Assembly: GCA_964366415.1 (NCBI GenBank)
Contig: CAYITG010000001.1
Coordinates: forward strand, 515,203 to 579,202
Origin: Candidatus Woesearchaeota archaeon
GTDB taxonomy: Archaea > Nanobdellota > Nanobdellia > SCGC-AAA011-G17 > UBA489
Direction of reading: 5' to 3'
Length of the DNA stretch: 64,000 bases
Of this stretch, positions 17,335-27,186 are shown piece by piece. The notes beneath the pieces were generated by a model that did not search any database, had not been told where the DNA came from, and was given only the letters and a program-made list of their open reading frames with translations. Each line of letters begins with the position of its first letter. Position 1 is the first letter of the stretch. Both the position numbers and the translations under genes were made by a program.

Positions 17335-18945
17335 TTATAATTGTTTAGCGAGAGCTTTTACTTTAGCAACGCCAATATTTTTGATCAGATTAAATAATCT
17401 TGGTCCAAGCTCTTTGTTCAATAAGAGAAGGTATGAAGATTTGAATAATTCAGATCTTGGAATGTTTCTTTTTTCTGATACCTGTTTGAATGTCTTTTCA
17501 AGCATCTCTTCTTCCATACTTTCTGTGATAAGATCTACAAATTCCTTGAGTGCTGCTTTATGTTCTTTAGACATTTTTTTGGCAGATTCCTGTACACTCT
17601 CTTGCACCTTAAAGAGGAACTGTTCTGGTGCATAATTCATAAGCCAATTCTTTGCACATGATATACGAGTACGCAGTCTTTGCTCATCAAATTTTGTTTT
17701 TACATCTGCTTTAAAGAAATCATATGTTTTTAATTCATCCATTACATTGAGCTGAAGAACTGTTGTGATATGCCTAAAACCTGGTTGGAAAGGTAATTTT
17801 TTAGGAATTTCCACAGCACTATACTCATAGATTGATTTTTGCTGCTCTAAGATATTTTCTTGAGCAGGAGCCTCAGCTTCGAAGTATACACGTTCGAGAC
17901 GGTCGAAAGCATCATACAATGTAATCACGTCGCCATCAAAAGAAATCTCAAATGCTTTTGAAGGAATGGTGCGCACAAAGAGATATTTAATCACGCAGGG
18001 CTCATATATAGATTTCATTTCTTTCAGATCTATTGTATTTCCTTTCGAACTCGACATTTTGCCGCCTGTGCCTTTGATGGAAATGAATTCATACATAATA
18101 TGATAAGGTGGCTCGAAGTCATAGAATTTGACGATCTCATTCGCAGTCGTGTTACTTCCGCCGTGCGAAGAATGTTCTTTGCCTGAAGGCTCGAAACGCA
18201 CTTTCTCAAAAGCCCAACGCATGGGCCAATCGACACGCCATTGAAGTTTTGCGTTACCTTTCTTACGCATATCAAATGAGTTCTTGAATCCACAATTACA
18301 CGTGTATGAAAGCGTGTAACTTTTATCGTACCCTATAATTTTTGTATCATCAGTGTTGCATTTCTCACAGAATATGCGCACTGGACTCCATTCCCCTTCA
18401 AGATCTTCTGCTCGCCATTCATCCAATACTTCTTTTATTTTATCTTGTTTCAAAAGAGCAGTTTTCATACCGTCGGCATATTCACATGCACGATATTTCT
18501 TTGATTGATATAAAAATGTTGGAAAAACACCCATTGAAGAAAGTTCTTTCTCAAGCACCTTCTCATTATGCTCAGCATAATTCTTATGGCAATCAAAAGG
18601 ATCTGGAACATCAACTATAGGTTGACGTAAATATTTTTTAAGCTCTTCTTGTTTTGGAAAATTTGCAGGGATCTTTCGAAAGACATCATAATCATCCCAA
18701 GAATAAATAAACCGCACCTTTTTGCCTAACTTTTCTAATGCTTTTCCAACAAGATGGACCGTCATAATCTCGCGGAAATTACCCATGTGAACAACGCCGC
18801 TAGGTGTGATGCCTGCAGCAACAGTATATTCTGGAAGATTGCCTCGCGTTTCAATAACTTTCTTTGCAACATGATCTGGCCAGTGTTCTTTCTCAGCGTT
18901 TGCCTGTTCTATTTTCTTTGTTTTCTTCTCTTGTTTTTTTACCAT
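17335..18945 (-). CDS. lysK: lysyl-tRNA synthetase, class I
   Basis: ITPSGVVHMGNFREIMT (HIGH-like motif) and KMSSSKGN (KMSKS). The true start MVKKQEKK is at 18945; the ORF-track extension to 19008 reads through the tRNA gene. Confidence 0.85.
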   Translation of the reverse strand: MVKKQEKKTKKIEQANAEKEHWPDHVAKKVIETRGNLPEYTVAAGITPSGVVHMGNFREIMTVHLVGKALEKLGKKVRFIYSWDDYDVFRKIPANFPKQEELKKYLRQPIVDVPDPFDCHKNYAEHNEKVLEKELSSMGVFPTFLYQSKKYRACEYADGMKTALLKQDKIKEVLDEWRAEDLEGEWSPVRIFCEKCNTDDTKIIGYDKSYTLSYTCNCGFKNSFDMRKKGNAKLQWRVDWPMRWAFEKVRFEPSGKEHSSHGGSNTTANEIVKFYDFEPPYHIMYEFISIKGTGGKMSSSKGNTIDLKEMKSIYEPCVIKYLFVRTIPSKAFEISFDGDVITLYDAFDRLERVYFEAEAPAQENILEQQKSIYEYSAVEIPKKLPFQPGFRHITTVLQLNVMDELKTYDFFKADVKTKFDEQRLRTRISCAKNWLMNYAPEQFLFKVQESVQESAKKMSKEHKAALKEFVDLITESMEEEMLEKTFKQVSEKRNIPRSELFKSSYLLLLNKELGPRLFNLIKNIGVAKVKALAKQL

Positions 18946-18962
18946 TTTTGATGAGAAAAATG

Positions 18963-19037
18963 CGAGCCCGAAGGGATTTGAACCCTCGACCCCTTGGTTA
19001 AGAGCCAAGTGCTCTAGCCAGACTGAGCTACGGGCCC
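18963..19037 (-). tRNA. tRNA-Lys (anticodon CUU)
   Basis: Minus-strand sequence GGGCCCGTAGCTCAGTCTGGCTAGAGCACTTGGCTCTTAACCAAGGGGTCGAGGGTTCAAATCCCTTCGGGCTCG. Cloverleaf with 7-bp acceptor stem, D-arm, anticodon loop CUCUUAA, T-arm GGTTCAAAT. CCA is not encoded. Confidence 0.85.
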
Positions 19038-23900: not shown

Positions 23901-24482
23901 ATGATATCAAAACAACAGACTGTTCAGCTGATTACGAAAGACATGACTATTGGAAATGTCTTTGAACAGTATCCTCAGAAAGCTGCGCAACTTGCAGAGG
24001 TCATGACTGCACATGGCTTGCATTGTGTTGGATGTCATGTCAATGTGTTTGAGACGATTGAACAAGGCATTTTAGGGCATGATATGGATACAAAACAATT
24101 AGATTCTTTATTGAAAGGCATGAATGAGGTATTAATGAGAAAAGAAGAACCCATTACTGGAGGCATACGATTAACTCCTGCTGCCGTTGAGAAGGTAAAG
24201 GAACTGCAAAAGAAAGAAAAGAAACACGATATGGGATTGCGTGTTGCTGTAGAAGCAGGCGGATGCGCAGGGTTTAGCTATGCTTTGTATTTTGATAAAG
24301 CCATGAAAGGCGATACTGTTATCAAACAAGCGGGAATCCAGGTTTATATTCAACCAGACGCAGCTCAGAAATTACAAGGAAGTGAAATTGATTACGTTGA
24401 TGGATTACAAGGCGCTGGCTTTAAATTCAATAACCCTAATGCGAAGAAAGCATGCGGATGCGGACATTCTGCTGGATTTTAA
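23901..24482 (+). CDS. DUF1858 domain fused to IscA/HesB-type Fe-S cluster carrier
   Basis: N-terminal TIGNVFEQYPQ...GLHCVGCHV (DUF1858-like); C-terminal LRVAVEAGGCAGFSY...CGCGHSAGF (IscA/ErpA signature). Confidence 0.7.
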   Translation: MISKQQTVQLITKDMTIGNVFEQYPQKAAQLAEVMTAHGLHCVGCHVNVFETIEQGILGHDMDTKQLDSLLKGMNEVLMRKEEPITGGIRLTPAAVEKVKELQKKEKKHDMGLRVAVEAGGCAGFSYALYFDKAMKGDTVIKQAGIQVYIQPDAAQKLQGSEIDYVDGLQGAGFKFNNPNAKKACGCGHSAGF

Positions 24483-25623
24483 AGAGAATATTGCAATAAG
24501 AGGTGTTGCCTTTTCATACTTTTAATATATGAATTGACTTCTGCTGTTGATATCTCCTCTGGAAATTTTGTTTTTAACATTTTAAGTATTTTAACTCTTA
24601 GTCTATACGTATTTGCATGCTTCATATGCGCACATGTTCCTTGCATACTCTCATACACTTGGTCGTATGTTAGATCTTTATCTGCATATTTCTGATAAAG
24701 TTTGTGTACTCTCCTTTGCACATTTCTTCTGTTAAATCTCTTTAGTAATTTATAATGATAAAATATTTTTATGCCTAGAAATGCTATAGGTTTTCCTAGG
24801 GATATGATTTTAGATTTTCCAGCGTGCAATTCTATCTTTAGTCTTTCTTTCAGGAAAATATTAATCCTTTCTTTCCATTCTTGCAATTGACTTCTTGAAG
24901 AATGAAGAACAGTGAAATCATCAACGTATCGTATGTAATATTTTGCTCTTAGTTCATGCTTGATGAATTGGTCCAATTCATTTAAGTAGATATTCGCAAA
25001 AAATTGAGAGGTAAGATTTCCCAAAGGCATACCTGTCTTGACATTGCCCCCCCCCCTTCGTAATTCGAAAGAATTTTTCTTACAAGCCAAATTGTTTTAT
25101 AGCATCGTATTTTCTTTTTTAGGATTTCAAGAAGGATGTGGTGATTGACTGTTTCGAAATAGTGCCTGATATCGGCCTTTAGACAATAACCTTTCACTTG
25201 ATTGTTGGTAAACCAACCATTTATTTTACCATTTCTTGAGATTTTTCTTTTGAATTGGTCATATCGTTTGAGTGCTGCCAGTGTTCCCTTTCCTTTTCTG
25301 TTTGCATAAGAATCATAGATGAATGATTTTTCGTAGATTGGTTCTAGGACTTGACAGAGGGCATGATGGACAACCCTATCCCGAAAGTCTGATTTGCTGA
25401 TTTTTCTTGTCTTTGGATCTCTGATAACGAATGTCTTGAGGGGTTTTGGTCGGTATGCGTGAAACAAGAGTTCCGTTCTTAGAGAAGAAATGTTTTCTTC
25501 AAGGTTTTGTTCAAATTCTTTTACATACTCTTTTTTTGTTTTTCCTTTTCTAGCATTTCTATATGCTCTGTATAAATTTTCTTCTGAAATTATTTCTTGG
25601 TAAAGATTTTTGTATGTTTTCAT
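24479..25623 (-). CDS. DGR reverse transcriptase, frame broken at a G10 homopolymer (fragments 24982..25623 and 24479..25090)
   Basis: RT motifs LYRAYRNARKGK (domain 0), VIRDPKTRKISKSDFRDRVVHHAL, DIRHYFETVNHHIL, GMPLGNLTSQFFANIYLNELD (DGR-type I/LGxxxSQ motif 4), YIRYVDDFTV (motif 5). The frame shifts at C10 on plus (25047..25056). The ORF-track N-terminal extension to 25701 is a translation of the TR. Confidence 0.75.
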
Positions 25624-25651
25624 ATGGTCTGTCTTAGTTTCTAGGGCTATT

Positions 25652-25738
25652 CCAAAAGCATAACCGTTGTTGTTGCCATGGTTGTTACCATTGACATTCA
25701 ACCTGTGATCGTCATTCCAATTGGAATTAAGAGCCGAG
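25652..25738 (-). repeat. DGR template repeat (TR)
   Basis: ~87 nt that match the target 3' end (25964..26056) except at coding-strand adenines; lies 29 nt upstream of the RT start. Confidence 0.8.
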
Positions 25739-25933
25739 GGCAGTTATGTAGCTCGTTCATTATATGTAAACCACCACCATTTCATTGTTCAGAACATGCT
25801 TACTAAATGTTATGGTTGTATTATATGGCATTGCTGCACTATGAACGAACATGTAGCCCTAGCAGAGCTAGCAGATTACTAACCCCTCTAAGACAGTATA
25901 AAGAAAAAAAAGAATTGCTTAAAAATTTTGCGA

Positions 25934-25946
25934 CTGGCTATGCCAG
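25934..25946 (-). other. hairpin (CTGGC-tat-GCCAG) just 3' of the VR and target stop
   Basis: Perfect 5-bp stem with 3-nt loop, 5 nt after the stop codon and 18 nt after the end of VR homology. Confidence 0.4.
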
Positions 25947-25950
25947 TTGT

Positions 25951-26631
25951 TTACGGACGTACCCCAAAAGCACAACCGCCGTCGTCGCTGCTGCCATGGA
26001 CGTAACCACTGACACTCAACCTGCGACCGTCACTCCAATAGGAATAAAGAGCCGAGACTCTCGTGGTTGGTTCATCAGTTGATCTGAGACTCCACAGATA
26101 AGGTTTCTTTCCATGTTTATCGGCTATTTCTGCTAACTGTTCTGCACCTTCTTGTCCGACAAGCGCTTGAACATACACATTCTTTGCTAATTCTAAAGAC
26201 GACATAGATTCTGTTTTGAAGCCGAAGGGAACAAAACGAACTGTAGGATCATTGGATTCTAGCTTTTTGACAAGATCTGATTGTTCCATGAAAGGCATGC
26301 CATTTCTGATGGCAGGATGATCTTGAATATAGGCTCCTTTGTTGGGAACATATAATGTTCCTGTAAAGCCCCATAACCAGTTGCTTTTCATGAATTTCTG
26401 TATTTCTGTGCTGTATTTGTCATCGGAATAGAAAGCAGCATGGACTAAAGAAACTGTTTGTGCTAAAGTGGGAGTTGTTAATCCTGCTTGTTCGATGGAT
26501 GATTTAACATTGACATATGTATTGGGACCATACTGGGGATGGATGAAGGTTAATTCTTTACCTTGATGAGGAACTGTAAGCTCTGTACGTCCTTCTTTGA
26601 CTTGTAATCCTTTATTTTGTATTGTGTTCAT
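25951..26631 (-). CDS. DGR target (variable) protein; C-terminal VR region likely CLec-like ligand-binding fold
   Basis: C-terminus ...SALYSYWSDGRRLSVSGYVHGSSDDGGCAFGVRP is encoded by the VR. The TR encodes the Asn-rich NSNWNDDHRLNVNGNNHGNNNGYAFG. SD GGAG 8 nt upstream of the ATG. Confidence 0.7.
   Translation of the reverse strand: MNTIQNKGLQVKEGRTELTVPHQGKELTFIHPQYGPNTYVNVKSSIEQAGLTTPTLAQTVSLVHAAFYSDDKYSTEIQKFMKSNWLWGFTGTLYVPNKGAYIQDHPAIRNGMPFMEQSDLVKKLESNDPTVRFVPFGFKTESMSSLELAKNVYVQALVGQEGAEQLAEIADKHGKKPYLWSLRSTDEPTTRVSALYSYWSDGRRLSVSGYVHGSSDDGGCAFGVRP
25964..26056 (-). repeat. DGR variable repeat (VR) at the 3' end of the target gene
   Basis: Aligns to the TR with ~15 substitutions, all at TR A positions (plus-strand T>C or T>A), plus a 6-nt indel in the (CAA)n / CAGCAGCGACGACGGCGG tract. 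Confidence 0.8.
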
Positions 26632-26775: not shown

Positions 26776-27186
26776 ATGTCCCACCGGTTATTGCTACACC
26801 CACAGGAAATTGAAGTCTTTTACATACTTCCTGCTTTGCGAAGGCAGCTAGTTATATTCATGAAAGAACGTGGTTTGAAACAAAGAGATATTGCCCGATT
26901 ACTTGAGATTAATGAAGCTGCTATTAGTCAGTATCTTAGCGGCAAGCGAGGGCATCAGATTGATTTTGGAGGGAAGATTCTTGACGAGATTCAACACTCT
27001 GCGCAGCGCATTACTAACCAAGGAACATTCTTGATGGAAATGCAACGCTTGTTGAAAGTTATTCGCGAATCAAAAGTGCTTTGCCAGATTCACCGTCAAT
27101 TTTCGACTGTCCCTAGTGAATGTGATCCATTTGCAACAGGATGCATTGAGAAGGAGGATTTAGTACATGTCACCGCAAAAAACTGA
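26776..27186 (+). CDS. XRE-family HTH regulator with C-terminal Cys-containing domain (putative suf regulator)
   Basis: HTH LKQRDIARLLEINEAAISQYLSGKRG; TATA TTTATAAA ~25 nt upstream of the ATG; overlaps the sufB start. Confidence 0.55.
   Translation: MSHRLLLHPQEIEVFYILPALRRQLVIFMKERGLKQRDIARLLEINEAAISQYLSGKRGHQIDFGGKILDEIQHSAQRITNQGTFLMEMQRLLKVIRESKVLCQIHRQFSTVPSECDPFATGCIEKEDLVHVTAKN

Follow-up and report, generated by a model that had tools for sequence, protein, structure and literature searches.

A diversity-generating retroelement of the nanoarchaeal type with an RT-16 RNA and a G-run in its reverse transcriptase gene

The minus strand of the 64 kb window (the whole stretch of DNA that was analysed) carries what is, with a probability of about 0.9, a chromosomal diversity-generating retroelement (DGR) of the nanoarchaeal/DPANN type. 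The anatomy of the element, the adenine-only pattern of differences between its repeats, the kinship of its reverse transcriptase (RT) and the fold of its target protein are all those of a DGR. The preliminary description of this DNA had proposed the same interpretation, which is upheld by the mismatch, RT-profile and target-fold checks. This kind of DGR is not new and belongs to the nanoarchaeal/DPANN type described before; neither its scaffold RNA, which is conserved, nor the unstable run of G in its RT gene had been linked to DGRs before.

The order on the minus strand is a target gene with a C-terminal variable repeat (VR), an IMH and a hairpin, a putative promoter, an RT-16 RNA, a template repeat (TR), a 24 nt spacer, and the RT gene. 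The features are as follows:

25951..26631, minus strand: target gene, 226 aa, an AvpA-like variable protein of C-type-lectin fold, with the VR at its 3' end
25960..26056, minus strand: VR, 97 nt, coding for the final 32 residues ahead of the ...RP* of the target gene
25961..25966, minus strand: IMH core TGGGGT at the 3' end of the VR, with GGGG fixed in 8 of 8 loci compared
25933..25947, minus strand: hairpin ACTGGC-ATA-GCCAGT, beginning 4 nt past the target stop codon, with T-runs next
25918..25925, minus strand: TATA-like box TTTTTAAG, read from the sequence, centred about 27 nt upstream of GUCUUAG
25743..25893, minus strand: structured non-coding RNA RT-16 (Rfam RF03019), scoring 100.1 bits where the gathering score is 50, over the complete model (1-158 of 158)
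25743..25896, minus strand: RT-16 plus the 3 upstream nt that complete helix A, ending 4 nt before the TR
25888..25896, minus strand: 5' strand of helix A, CUGUCUUAG, at the putative 5' end of the transcript or close to it, paired with 25629..25637 (MFE)
25854..25862, minus strand: upstream strand of helix B, CUAGGGCUA, paired with 25641..25649 (MFE)
25648..25738, minus strand: TR, 91 nt, with 29 adenines and 10 AAY (Asn) codons, reading SALNSNWNDDHRLNVNGNNHGNNNGYAFGI
25649..25654, minus strand: IMH* core TGGAAT at the 3' end of the TR, with GGAA where the VR has GGGG
25629..25649, minus strand: post-TR spacer UAGCCCUAG-AAA-CUAAGACAG, the strand that runs unbroken through helices B and A, ending 5 nt before the RT start codon
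24479..25623, minus strand: DGR-type RT gene, 381-382 aa if the frame is repaired, assembled as two overlapping ORFs
25047..25056, minus strand: G10 homopolymer (C10 on the plus strand) in the RT gene, between RT motifs 3 and 4

Repeats and target protein

[quoted passage not shown] The peptides that had been quoted for the TR and the VR are both exact. All 17 of the mismatches between the repeats (earlier counted as about 15) are at adenines of the TR, as 13 A>G and 4 A>T substitutions, a confinement with a hypergeometric P of 4.5e-11 given 29 adenines in 91 TR bases. Two of the 17, both A>G (GGAA in the TR, GGGG in the VR), are fixed in 8 of 8 related loci and are the distinction between IMH* and IMH and not products of mutagenesis. 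The VR is also 6 nt (two codons) longer than the TR, through an in-frame insertion inside the (AAC)n tract that can be placed as GACGAC or equivalently; this insertion is absent from the preliminary description. An indel at an AAC run is a known minority pattern in DGRs (PMC5758913).

When all of the TR adenines are masked, the resulting pattern is found in the 64 kb only at the TR and VR sites, with 0 expected, and this search therefore found no second VR in the window. Seven related loci have the same layout, with mismatches mostly at adenines.

It had been suggested that the C-terminus of the target might have a C-type lectin or FGE-like fold, and fold comparison identifies it as the C-type-lectin fold of the AvpA type. 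Fold comparison alone identified the protein, as it has no match in Pfam or NCBIfam and its HMM profile has none in the PDB, and identity to AvpA is 13%. The VR is at the 3' end of the target ORF, and the fold is among those, C-type lectin or Ig, that tolerate variation. Reading of the sequence by eye found no hydrophobic N-terminal segment in the target.

The same TGGGGT/TGGAAT pair of motifs has been reported for the DUSEL4 Nanoarchaeota DGRs (PMC4372165). The relatives have an equivalent hairpin 3' of the IMH, with a stem of 5-7 bp and a 3 nt loop that is mostly GAA, and the loop of nanoarchaeal DGR hairpins has been given as GRA (PMC4372165). The loop here is ATA, not GRA, which was counted against the DGR explanation. 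Between the hairpin and RT-16, the TATA-like box may be the archaeal promoter of the DGR RNA, and the relatives carry TTTATTAAT at an equal distance upstream of GUCUUAG. A scan for sigma-70 promoters gave nothing useful, that model being irrelevant to an archaeon.

Reverse transcriptase

The RT gene does start at the ATG at 25621..25623 and stop at 24479..24481, as had been described, although the 1145 nt between are a split reading frame and not a single one. The Pfam family RVT_1 matches both halves. The motif-4 variant LGNLTSQ, which had been taken as specific to DGRs, is present ([LIV]GxxxSQ, not QGxxSP), and the RT is most similar to a DGR RT, in line with the proposal: with the frame repaired, its best match in the PDB is the RT of the Bordetella phage (bRT, 8ub7_A) at 144 bits (E 8e-41), with group-II-like and retron-type RTs at 76-89 bits. 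In the alignment with bRT, R74, Q187 and the catalytic aspartates are identical residues, and I181 is a Leu. Identity to the RTs of related DPANN loci is 58-65%.

Were this not a DGR, the RT would be of the group II intron, retron or defence type, and the repeat would come from a partial gene duplication. Generic RT models do match this protein, including group_II_RT_mat (TIGR04416) at 152 bits and the PADLOC UG/DRT models. However, the RT falls below every cut-off of the NCBIfam group II, retron and Drt3a models (152 against 300 for TIGR04416, 57 against 235 for retron_St85_RT), and bRT is clearly its best solved relative. There is no group II intron or retron RNA family in the 64 kb window among Rfam matches, and where a retron would have its msr/msd RNA, the RNA adjoining the RT is RT-16, followed by a TR that resembles protein-coding sequence. 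With divergence at adenines only (P about 5e-11) and the AvpA fold of the target also against it, this explanation is very improbable.

The RT-16 RNA and its long-range helices

Between the VR and the TR is the RT-16 RNA, overlooked in the preliminary description. It is upstream of the RT in all of the genome loci that possess an RT. The sequence HMM finds it in 35 of 76 metagenome and genome RT loci, and the Rfam covariance model matches 15 of 20 loci that the HMM does not; 14 of these matches lie upstream of the RT and on its own strand, and one is on the opposite strand. As a MAFFT alignment of RT-16 misaligned stem P1, the loci were searched with the sequence HMM and the Rfam model.

Helices A and B covary, and are two long-range helices formed with the 3' spacer. 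For helix A, a free duplex search, with an identical search across loci as the control, gave a duplex energy of -12.8 kcal/mol for strands of the same locus and -8.0 kcal/mol for strands of different loci, and 0 of 10000 permutations reach the observed value. The upstream strand of helix B is the 3' base of RT-16 stem P1 together with the three nucleotides that open the conserved CUACAYG box. In position-anchored columns from 34 loci, 82.6% of cells pair, compared to 65.2% when shuffled (0/500); 10 of 12 pairs have changes on both sides, and controls in which the strand is slid pair at 19-45%. G-U pairs are frequent in the columns of helix B, which indicates that the pairing is at the RNA level on the minus strand. 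Both helices are present in the MFE fold of the 278 nt RNA (-80.2 kcal/mol, z = -3.6). The RT-16 stem P1 as drawn by Rfam competes with helices A and B, and the long-range form may therefore be only one of two states of the RNA.

The G-run and variation within the population

The DGR had been described as complete, which the sequence as assembled does not show, since a frameshift in the G10 run splits the RT into the ORFs 24982..25701 and 24479..25090. Lengths that would be in frame at this site are G8 and G11. The sister contigs have G12 (L121 and the left part of L001), or end inside the run (L002). Runs are found at the same RT site in the relatives L004, L066, L091, L095, L096, and L112; those with shorter runs (G6-G9) have the RT in frame. 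No assembly of the population has the RT in frame, a point that was counted against the DGR explanation.

Over 20.6 kb, the sister contig L001, from the same well and another filter fraction, departs from the window only in the VR and the G-run. The two VR sequences differ by 12 substitutions and a 6 nt indel, all at sites of TR adenines. Variation within one population is thus confined to the VR, together with the length of the G-run. This is indirect evidence that mutagenic retrohoming may be ongoing; differences in the VR between contigs prove variation, not its timing.

Most likely, the G-run makes production of the RT depend on a change in tract length or on slippage, the lengths being those seen in assemblies alone. 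A G-tract of at least 8 in a coding region is a classic device of phase variation, as in the homopolymer contingency loci of bacteria. It is possible, at somewhat under even odds, that the run is a contingency switch, so that RT comes only from cells with G8 or G11 or from mRNAs corrected by slippage, either transcriptional or ribosomal, and that the DGR is rare in its action, stochastic, and phase variable. Indeed, the G10 is the sole G/C run longer than 6 in the 64 kb, GGG is the rarest Gly codon (13%), and G/C runs of at least 7 are enriched in the RT genes of the clade (14 in 88 kb, compared to 20 in 567 kb; P 6e-5). Seven loci have a run at the same RT position, and four of the five with at least G9 are out of frame, by +1 or -1. 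The tract is 10 in one contig and 12 in another of one population, yet the VR has varied, and a frameshifted but active DGR RT is known in Quimbyvirus (PMC8008677). A limited literature search found no description of a phase-variable DGR RT. Against a switch, Illumina assemblies miscount long G-runs, an in-frame allele was not seen among the contigs of the population, and poly-G/C artefacts occur in the Hainich assemblies, with a C51 at the scaffold join in L001 and a C50 at the start of L058.

The other reading, again at somewhat under even odds, is that the frameshift is purely an error of sequencing or assembly at a long homopolymer, and that the genome has an in-frame tract and an intact RT. 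The length is not consistent across three assemblies, one contig ends at the run, and the L001 scaffold is joined there with N10 and the artefactual C51; the relatives with G6-G9 are in frame, and the VR is demonstrably variable. However, neither of the observed lengths, 10 in the window and 12 in L121 and L001, is in frame, a run at this site puts the RT out of frame in four independent loci, which come from different samples, and a run of such length would be unstable in vivo anyway. Decay of the DGR is improbable; on this reading the G-run would have turned the RT into a pseudogene, and the VR differences would be left over from past activity. The RT is off frame in all of the assemblies and there are cassettes without RT among the relatives (such as L031), but the RT halves here are free of stops outside the G-run, are 58-65% identical to the RTs of relatives, and keep all of the catalytic motifs. 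The TR, RT-16, helices A and B, the IMH, and the hairpin are likewise intact, and two VR alleles on backgrounds that are identical over 20.6 kb would mean that the change is very recent. A fixed programmed ribosomal frameshift was also considered and judged unlikely, since the relatives need shifts in opposite directions.

Proposed mechanism

A dedicated transcript would start near 25896 and extend through RT-16, the TR and the spacer into the RT message. The spacer would pair with the two upstream segments in helices A and B, closing the RT-16 core and the TR into a loop, a fold in which the TR would end, on its 3' side, exactly at an RNA duplex. The RT would then copy the TR into cDNA, misincorporating opposite adenines and occasionally slipping in the AAC run, and the cDNA would replace the VR, guided by the IMH (TGGGGT) and the downstream hairpin. 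About 16 codons would be recoded, on the ligand-binding face of the AvpA-like lectin-fold protein; by arithmetic from the TR codons, about 10^15 proteins are possible. Helix B could serve as the duplex of template and primer, corresponding in permuted form to the TR:Sp duplex of phage BPP-1 but with a primer strand of upstream origin. The basis of this priming role is geometry and analogy. The element may also have no need of an Avd protein.

A wider proposal for this large clade of DPANN DGRs, which we consider doubtful as a whole, is that RT-16 is the missing accessory factor, a permuted upstream equivalent of the BPP-1 spacer that clamps the TR by two covarying long-range helices and supplies a cis-primer from the CUACAYG box, with Avd possibly dispensable, while a G-run that is hypermutable and keeps one fixed place in the RT gene gates the system and makes hypermutation phase variable. 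In itself this element is one more well-resolved DGR in a class known to be abundant in DPANN archaea, with unusually clean evidence of activity within a population. The RNA results would assign a function to RT-16, so far an orphan motif in Rfam, along with a structural model that can be tested, and with these a handle on RT priming in DGRs that have no visible Avd. The G-run results suggest a mutator enzyme under an unstable on/off switch, which, if true, bears on how cells limit the cost of hypermutation.

Comparison with known systems

The DGRs of the subterranean DUSEL4 Nanoarchaeota and of groundwater DPANN archaea (Paul et al. 2015, PMC4372165) share with this element the archaeal host, the order of target-VR, TR, and RT, the TR rich in Asn (AAY) codons, the IMH TGGGGT and IMH* TGGAAT, and a hairpin with a 3 nt loop after the VR, the loop being ATA here and GRA there. 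The single-cell genome AAA011-D5 (L031) of this group has a homologue of the target and a match to RT-16. AvpA, of which the structure is available (Handa et al. 2016, PMC5006420), is 13% identical to the target, which is undetectable by sequence against the PDB; AvpA has 46 residues after its VR, whereas the VR here is at the extreme C-terminus, and its hairpin is inside the gene, not past the stop codon. Neither the RT-16 RNA nor the G-run of the RT is described in PMC4372165 or PMC5006420.

In the DGR of Bordetella phage BPP-1, bRT-Avd with the DGR RNA has been solved by cryo-EM (8ub7, bioRxiv 10.1101/2023.10.23.563531). This is the closest solved relative of the RT, with adenine mutagenesis, pairing between the RNA segments on either side of the TR, a duplex next to the point where the copied stretch of the TR ends on its 3' side, and two adjacent duplexes on one continuous strand, all as here. 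Its structured Sp RNA, however, is 140 nt, is downstream of the TR, and supplies the primer; the spacer here is 24 nt and the structured RNA (about 150 nt) is upstream of the TR. There is also no Avd gene here, the target fold is of the AvpA type and not the Mtd/FGE type, and the host is a cell and not a phage.

RT-16 was defined as a motif by its nearness to RT genes, with no function assigned, and the one motif of that study connected with a DGR was RT-10 (Weinberg et al. 2017, PMC5737381). The match to RF03019 here is full length and at twice the gathering score. It differs from RT-16 as presented by Rfam in lying between the VR and the TR, adjoining the TR, and in being part of a larger fold with the post-TR spacer, which is outside the Rfam model.

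The Quimbyvirus DGR (Benler et al. 2021, PMC8008677) has its RT in overlapping frames, and in both elements an RT that is not a single ORF is nonetheless linked to adenine-specific variation of the VR. The shift here differs in being in a homopolymer of varying assembled length and in either direction among the relatives, which fits slippage better than a fixed programmed frameshift.

Genomic setting

An accessory protein (Avd or HRDC) is common in DGRs, though not universal, and Avd is needed in the one DGR that has been studied biochemically. The coding strand has no ORF between the target, the TR, and the RT, and none of the genes within 10 kb of the cassette has a recorded match to an Avd family of Pfam; the lack of an Avd-like gene in the cassette was counted against the DGR explanation.

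Pfam matches and the gene table agree that the cassette is flanked by IscA-like and suf genes, as had been noted. That it was inserted there is plausible, and no stronger than that, since the IscA and suf neighbours are absent from every related DGR locus in a comparison of their contexts. A nearby tyrosine recombinase was considered as the integrase of a mobile element and rejected, being the chromosomal XerA (NCBIfam). The attribution of the genome to an archaeon holds, with the NCBIfam models for archaeal topA, class I lysS, LonB, the PolD large subunit, and XerA all exceeding their curated cut-offs. The relatives of the element are those of DPANN archaea, the named target homologues coming from Woese-, Pace-, and Nanoarchaeota. 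The host is itself a tiny groundwater DPANN archaeon, in which the element rewrites the tip of one lectin-like protein.

Structure of the cassette

The element lies on the minus strand and has the following order.

25951..26631, minus strand: target ORF, first in minus-strand order
25960..26056, minus strand: variable repeat (VR), 97 nt, from alignment
25743..25893, minus strand: RT-16 RNA (Rfam RF03019), matched over its full length with 100 bits (gathering score 50)
25648..25738, minus strand: template repeat (TR), 91 nt, from alignment, a copy of the 3' end of the target ORF
24479, minus strand: end of the reverse transcriptase (RT) gene, last in minus-strand order

On this strand 212 nt separate the target ORF from the repeat of its 3' end and 24 nt separate the TR from the RT gene. 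Every one of the 17 substitutions between the aligned repeats (13 A>G, 4 A>T) is at an adenine of the TR (29 A in 91 bases, hypergeometric P 4.5e-11), which bears out the adenine-only divergence claimed in the preliminary description, where the TR and VR peptides were also quoted exactly. The changed adenines are at codon positions 1 or 2 in 16 of 17 cases, and the VR is longer than the TR by two codons, within the (AAC)n tract. The TR pattern with all adenines masked matches only the TR and VR sites in the 64-kb window, with 0 matches expected.

Variation within the population

The same target gene, with a different VR, encodes the homologue P0001 on a sister contig (L001) from the Hainich aquifer, well H52, 0.1-µm fraction. 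The two contigs are identical over 20.6 kb except in the VR and in a G-run within the RT gene, with no differences flanking the VR, over 10,575 nt in one direction and over 903 nt in the other, as far as the G-run. Their VR alleles differ at 12 positions and by a 6-nt indel, every site being a TR adenine. Judged from these assembled sequences, such VR-confined, TR-adenine variation between contigs is the signature that mutagenic retrohoming leaves in a population. A further sister contig, L121, assembled separately from the 0.2-µm fraction, carries the VR allele of the window. In the RT coding region the window and L121, whose VR alleles are identical, show a single G/A difference, at 25355.

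Relationship to known DGRs

Eight related loci were compared, and in each of them the repeat ends in TTYGGAAT in the TR (IMH*) and in TTYGGGGT in the VR (IMH); two of the 17 TR/VR differences are therefore this fixed IMH*/IMH distinction. The DUSEL4 Nanoarchaeota DGRs have exactly the same motif pair, with tri-nucleotide-loop hairpins (PMC4372165); the hairpin in the window, ACTGGC-ATA-GCCAGT, begins 4 nt past the stop codon, the loop in its relatives being mostly GAA. In-frame VR/TR indels at AAC repeats are found in three of the eight loci (the window, +6; L013, -3; L003, -3), a documented minority behaviour that has been put down to RT slippage (PMC5758913). The element belongs to the already known nanoarchaeal/DPANN DGR type, and passages in papers citing Paul et al. 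2017 describe such DGRs as abundant in those lineages. The DGR as such is ordinary for DPANN archaea; what is worth pursuing is its link to RT-16, together with the clamp formed by covarying helices and the G-run that recurs in the RT gene.

Some related loci are differently arranged. Two IMH-plus-hairpin copies, as tandem targets, are upstream of a single RT-16/TR/RT unit at L008 (6649 and 7353), L041 (1227 and 1958), and L097 (1399 and 2147). Many of the target-only loci (L006, L010, L018, and others) keep the TTYGGGGT IMH and a hairpin with a GAA loop but lack an RT within 6 kb. In the target homologue P0009, the C-terminus passes via a TR-like Asn-rich repeat straight into the RT start (…NVNGNNHGNNRNGCAFGIALATKITHMKTYTNLYQQ), either through a deletion by VR-TR recombination or through assembly collapse of the repeat. 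Target homologues 30–34% identical are on contigs binned as Bacteroidales or Bacteroidetes (L028–L030, L032–L034, L036–L040), which could reflect mis-binning, transfer, or a wider family.

Association with the RT-16 RNA

RT-16, which the preliminary description does not mention, sits between the VR and the TR, ending 4 nt from the TR. It is one of 19 orphan motifs reported near RT genes, among which RT-10 alone was tied to a DGR (PMC5737381), and a literature text search turned up no study of its function. Among the genome loci, RT-16 is present in every one that bears an RT; it is also present in L003, where the contig stops before the RT, and the sequence HMM adds L031, a locus with a TR but no RT. 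The other target-only loci have no RT-16 by Rfam (L005–L029) or by sequence HMM (all loci). By sequence HMM it is upstream of 35 of the 76 RT loci with enough flank, and 34 of the positives belong to the set of 58 loci with an RT identity of 48% or more. Of 20 HMM-negative loci, 15 match the Rfam covariance model; in 14 the match is upstream of the RT and shares its strand, and in one it is on the opposite strand. Its 3' end adjoins the TR in all cases examined.

An RT-16 match at L079:1332..1500, opposite in strand to the RT of that locus, suggests a second, divergently oriented cassette. At L031:6001..7140 (Nanoarchaeota archaeon SCGC AAA011-D5), a target homologue occurs with an RT-16 core match and with a TR-like segment plus matching spacer, and there is no RT downstream; this is an RT-less cassette, presumably served in trans or decayed.

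Long-range pairing with the post-TR spacer

The spacer after the TR is complementary to two upstream segments, forming helices A and B, which lie outside the Rfam RT-16 model.

25896..25888, minus strand: helix A upstream strand CUGUCUUAG, at the 5' end
25862..25854, minus strand: helix B upstream strand CUAGGGCUA, the 3' base of stem P1 and the three leading bases of the conserved box CUACAYG (box 1)
25649..25629, minus strand: post-TR spacer UAGCCCUAG-AAA-CUAAGACAG

The minimum free energy fold of the 278-nt RNA (-80.2 kcal/mol, z = -3.6) contains both helices, which enclose the apical part of P1 and so make a three-way junction. Helix B was tested in 34 non-identical loci anchored by position alone, on box 1 and GAAU. 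The paired share of cells is 82.6% in these loci and 65.2% in shuffles (0/500), with changes on both sides in 10 of 12 pairs; at one pair, 20 loci have UA and the other 14 have CG, without exception. When the register is slid, 19–45% of cells pair. Helix B strands from the same locus pair at 9.9 of 12 positions against 7.7 for strands from different loci (0/5000 permutations reach the observed value), and the duplex energy of helix A is -12.8 kcal/mol within loci against -8.0 across them (0/10000). G-U pairs are frequent, which indicates that the constraint acts on this RNA strand. The position of a TATA-like box, approximately 27 nt upstream of GUCUUAG in the window and its relatives, suggests that the DGR transcript may begin at helix A.

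In the DGR of Bordetella phage BPP-1, cDNA is cis-primed from a duplex of the TR 3' end with the downstream spacer, and this duplex stacks on a second that joins sequences up- and downstream of the TR (bioRxiv 10.1101/2023.10.23.563531). Here, too, the TR has two adjacent duplexes at its flanks, and the end of helix B coincides exactly with the GGAA/U boundary of the TR. Unlike BPP-1, the strand pairing with the TR flank derives from upstream, and the spacer is too short for an RNA like Sp, the BPP-1 spacer RNA. The analogy leads to the hypothesis that RT-16 would be functionally analogous, in a permuted arrangement, to Sp together with the avd segment; box 1 would be the candidate priming site.

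The reverse transcriptase and its G-run

The RT had been placed at 24479..25623; this span of 1145 nt is not one ORF but holds two, split at a run of ten G.

24982..25701, minus strand: first RT ORF
25047..25056, minus strand: G10 run, separating the two
24479..25090, minus strand: second RT ORF

Both halves match Pfam RVT_1. The frame-repaired protein is closest to bRT, the RT of the Bordetella phage DGR (8ub7, E 8e-41, 144 bits), against 76–89 bits for group-II-like and retron-type RTs, and scores below the curated cut-offs of the group II, retron, and Drt3a models. In the 8ub7 alignment the residues at bRT R74, Q187, and the catalytic aspartates are identical, with Leu opposite I181. No intron RNA was found in the window, and no Avd-like ORF in the cassette. 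The DGR reading is supported, neither mismatches outside TR adenines nor a group II or retron affinity of the RT, named beforehand as counting against it, having been found.

Only G8 or G11 would join the ORFs in frame. Apart from the G10 run, no G/C homopolymer in the window exceeds 6, and among the glycine codons GGG is the least used (13%). The run is G12 in L121 and G12-CA in L001, where it is followed by N10 and an artefactual C51 scaffold join, and the end of a third sister contig, L002, falls inside it. In 89 RT loci of the clade, the RT gene is enriched in G/C runs of at least 7, at 14 in 88 kb versus 20 in 567 kb (P 6e-5). Seven loci have a run at the same site, in a Gly-rich loop preceding RT motif 4.

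In frame: L004 (G7) 5216; L091 (G8) 884; L066 (G9) 972
Out of frame: L096 (G9) 1025; L095 (G10) 3076; L112 (G10) 943; the window (G10)

Of the five same-site loci whose run is at least G9, four are out of frame, the shift of +1 or -1 going either way. This pattern fits homopolymer instability, whether biological or technical, and shifts of both signs fit that better than a fixed programmed frameshift, which is disfavoured. Quimbyvirus offers a precedent for a DGR RT that is active in spite of a frameshift (PMC8008677). Runs at other RT sites are present in L019 (G9), L103 (G11), and L050 (G8).

Hainich assemblies have long poly-C at contig ends and scaffold joins, such as the C51 after N10 in L001:11570..11644 and the C50 starting L058:1..50. 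These are probably poly-G artefacts of two-colour chemistry, and because of such artefacts contigs break at the real G-run of the RT.

Host and neighbourhood

The window is archaeal, with archaeal topoisomerase I, class I LysRS, LonB, the PolD large subunit, and XerA all above curated cut-offs. The IscA/suf context was found at no other DGR locus among the relatives compared. On the plus strand, a gene for a small HTH protein, 26776..27186, overlaps sufB where that gene starts and is probably a suf operon regulator, outside the DGR. Within 17335..19037, a tRNA-Lys(CTT), 18962..19037, is directly upstream of the class I lysyl-tRNA synthetase gene on the same strand; the listed TTG-start ORF of the synthetase overlaps this tRNA, so that its true start must be further downstream.
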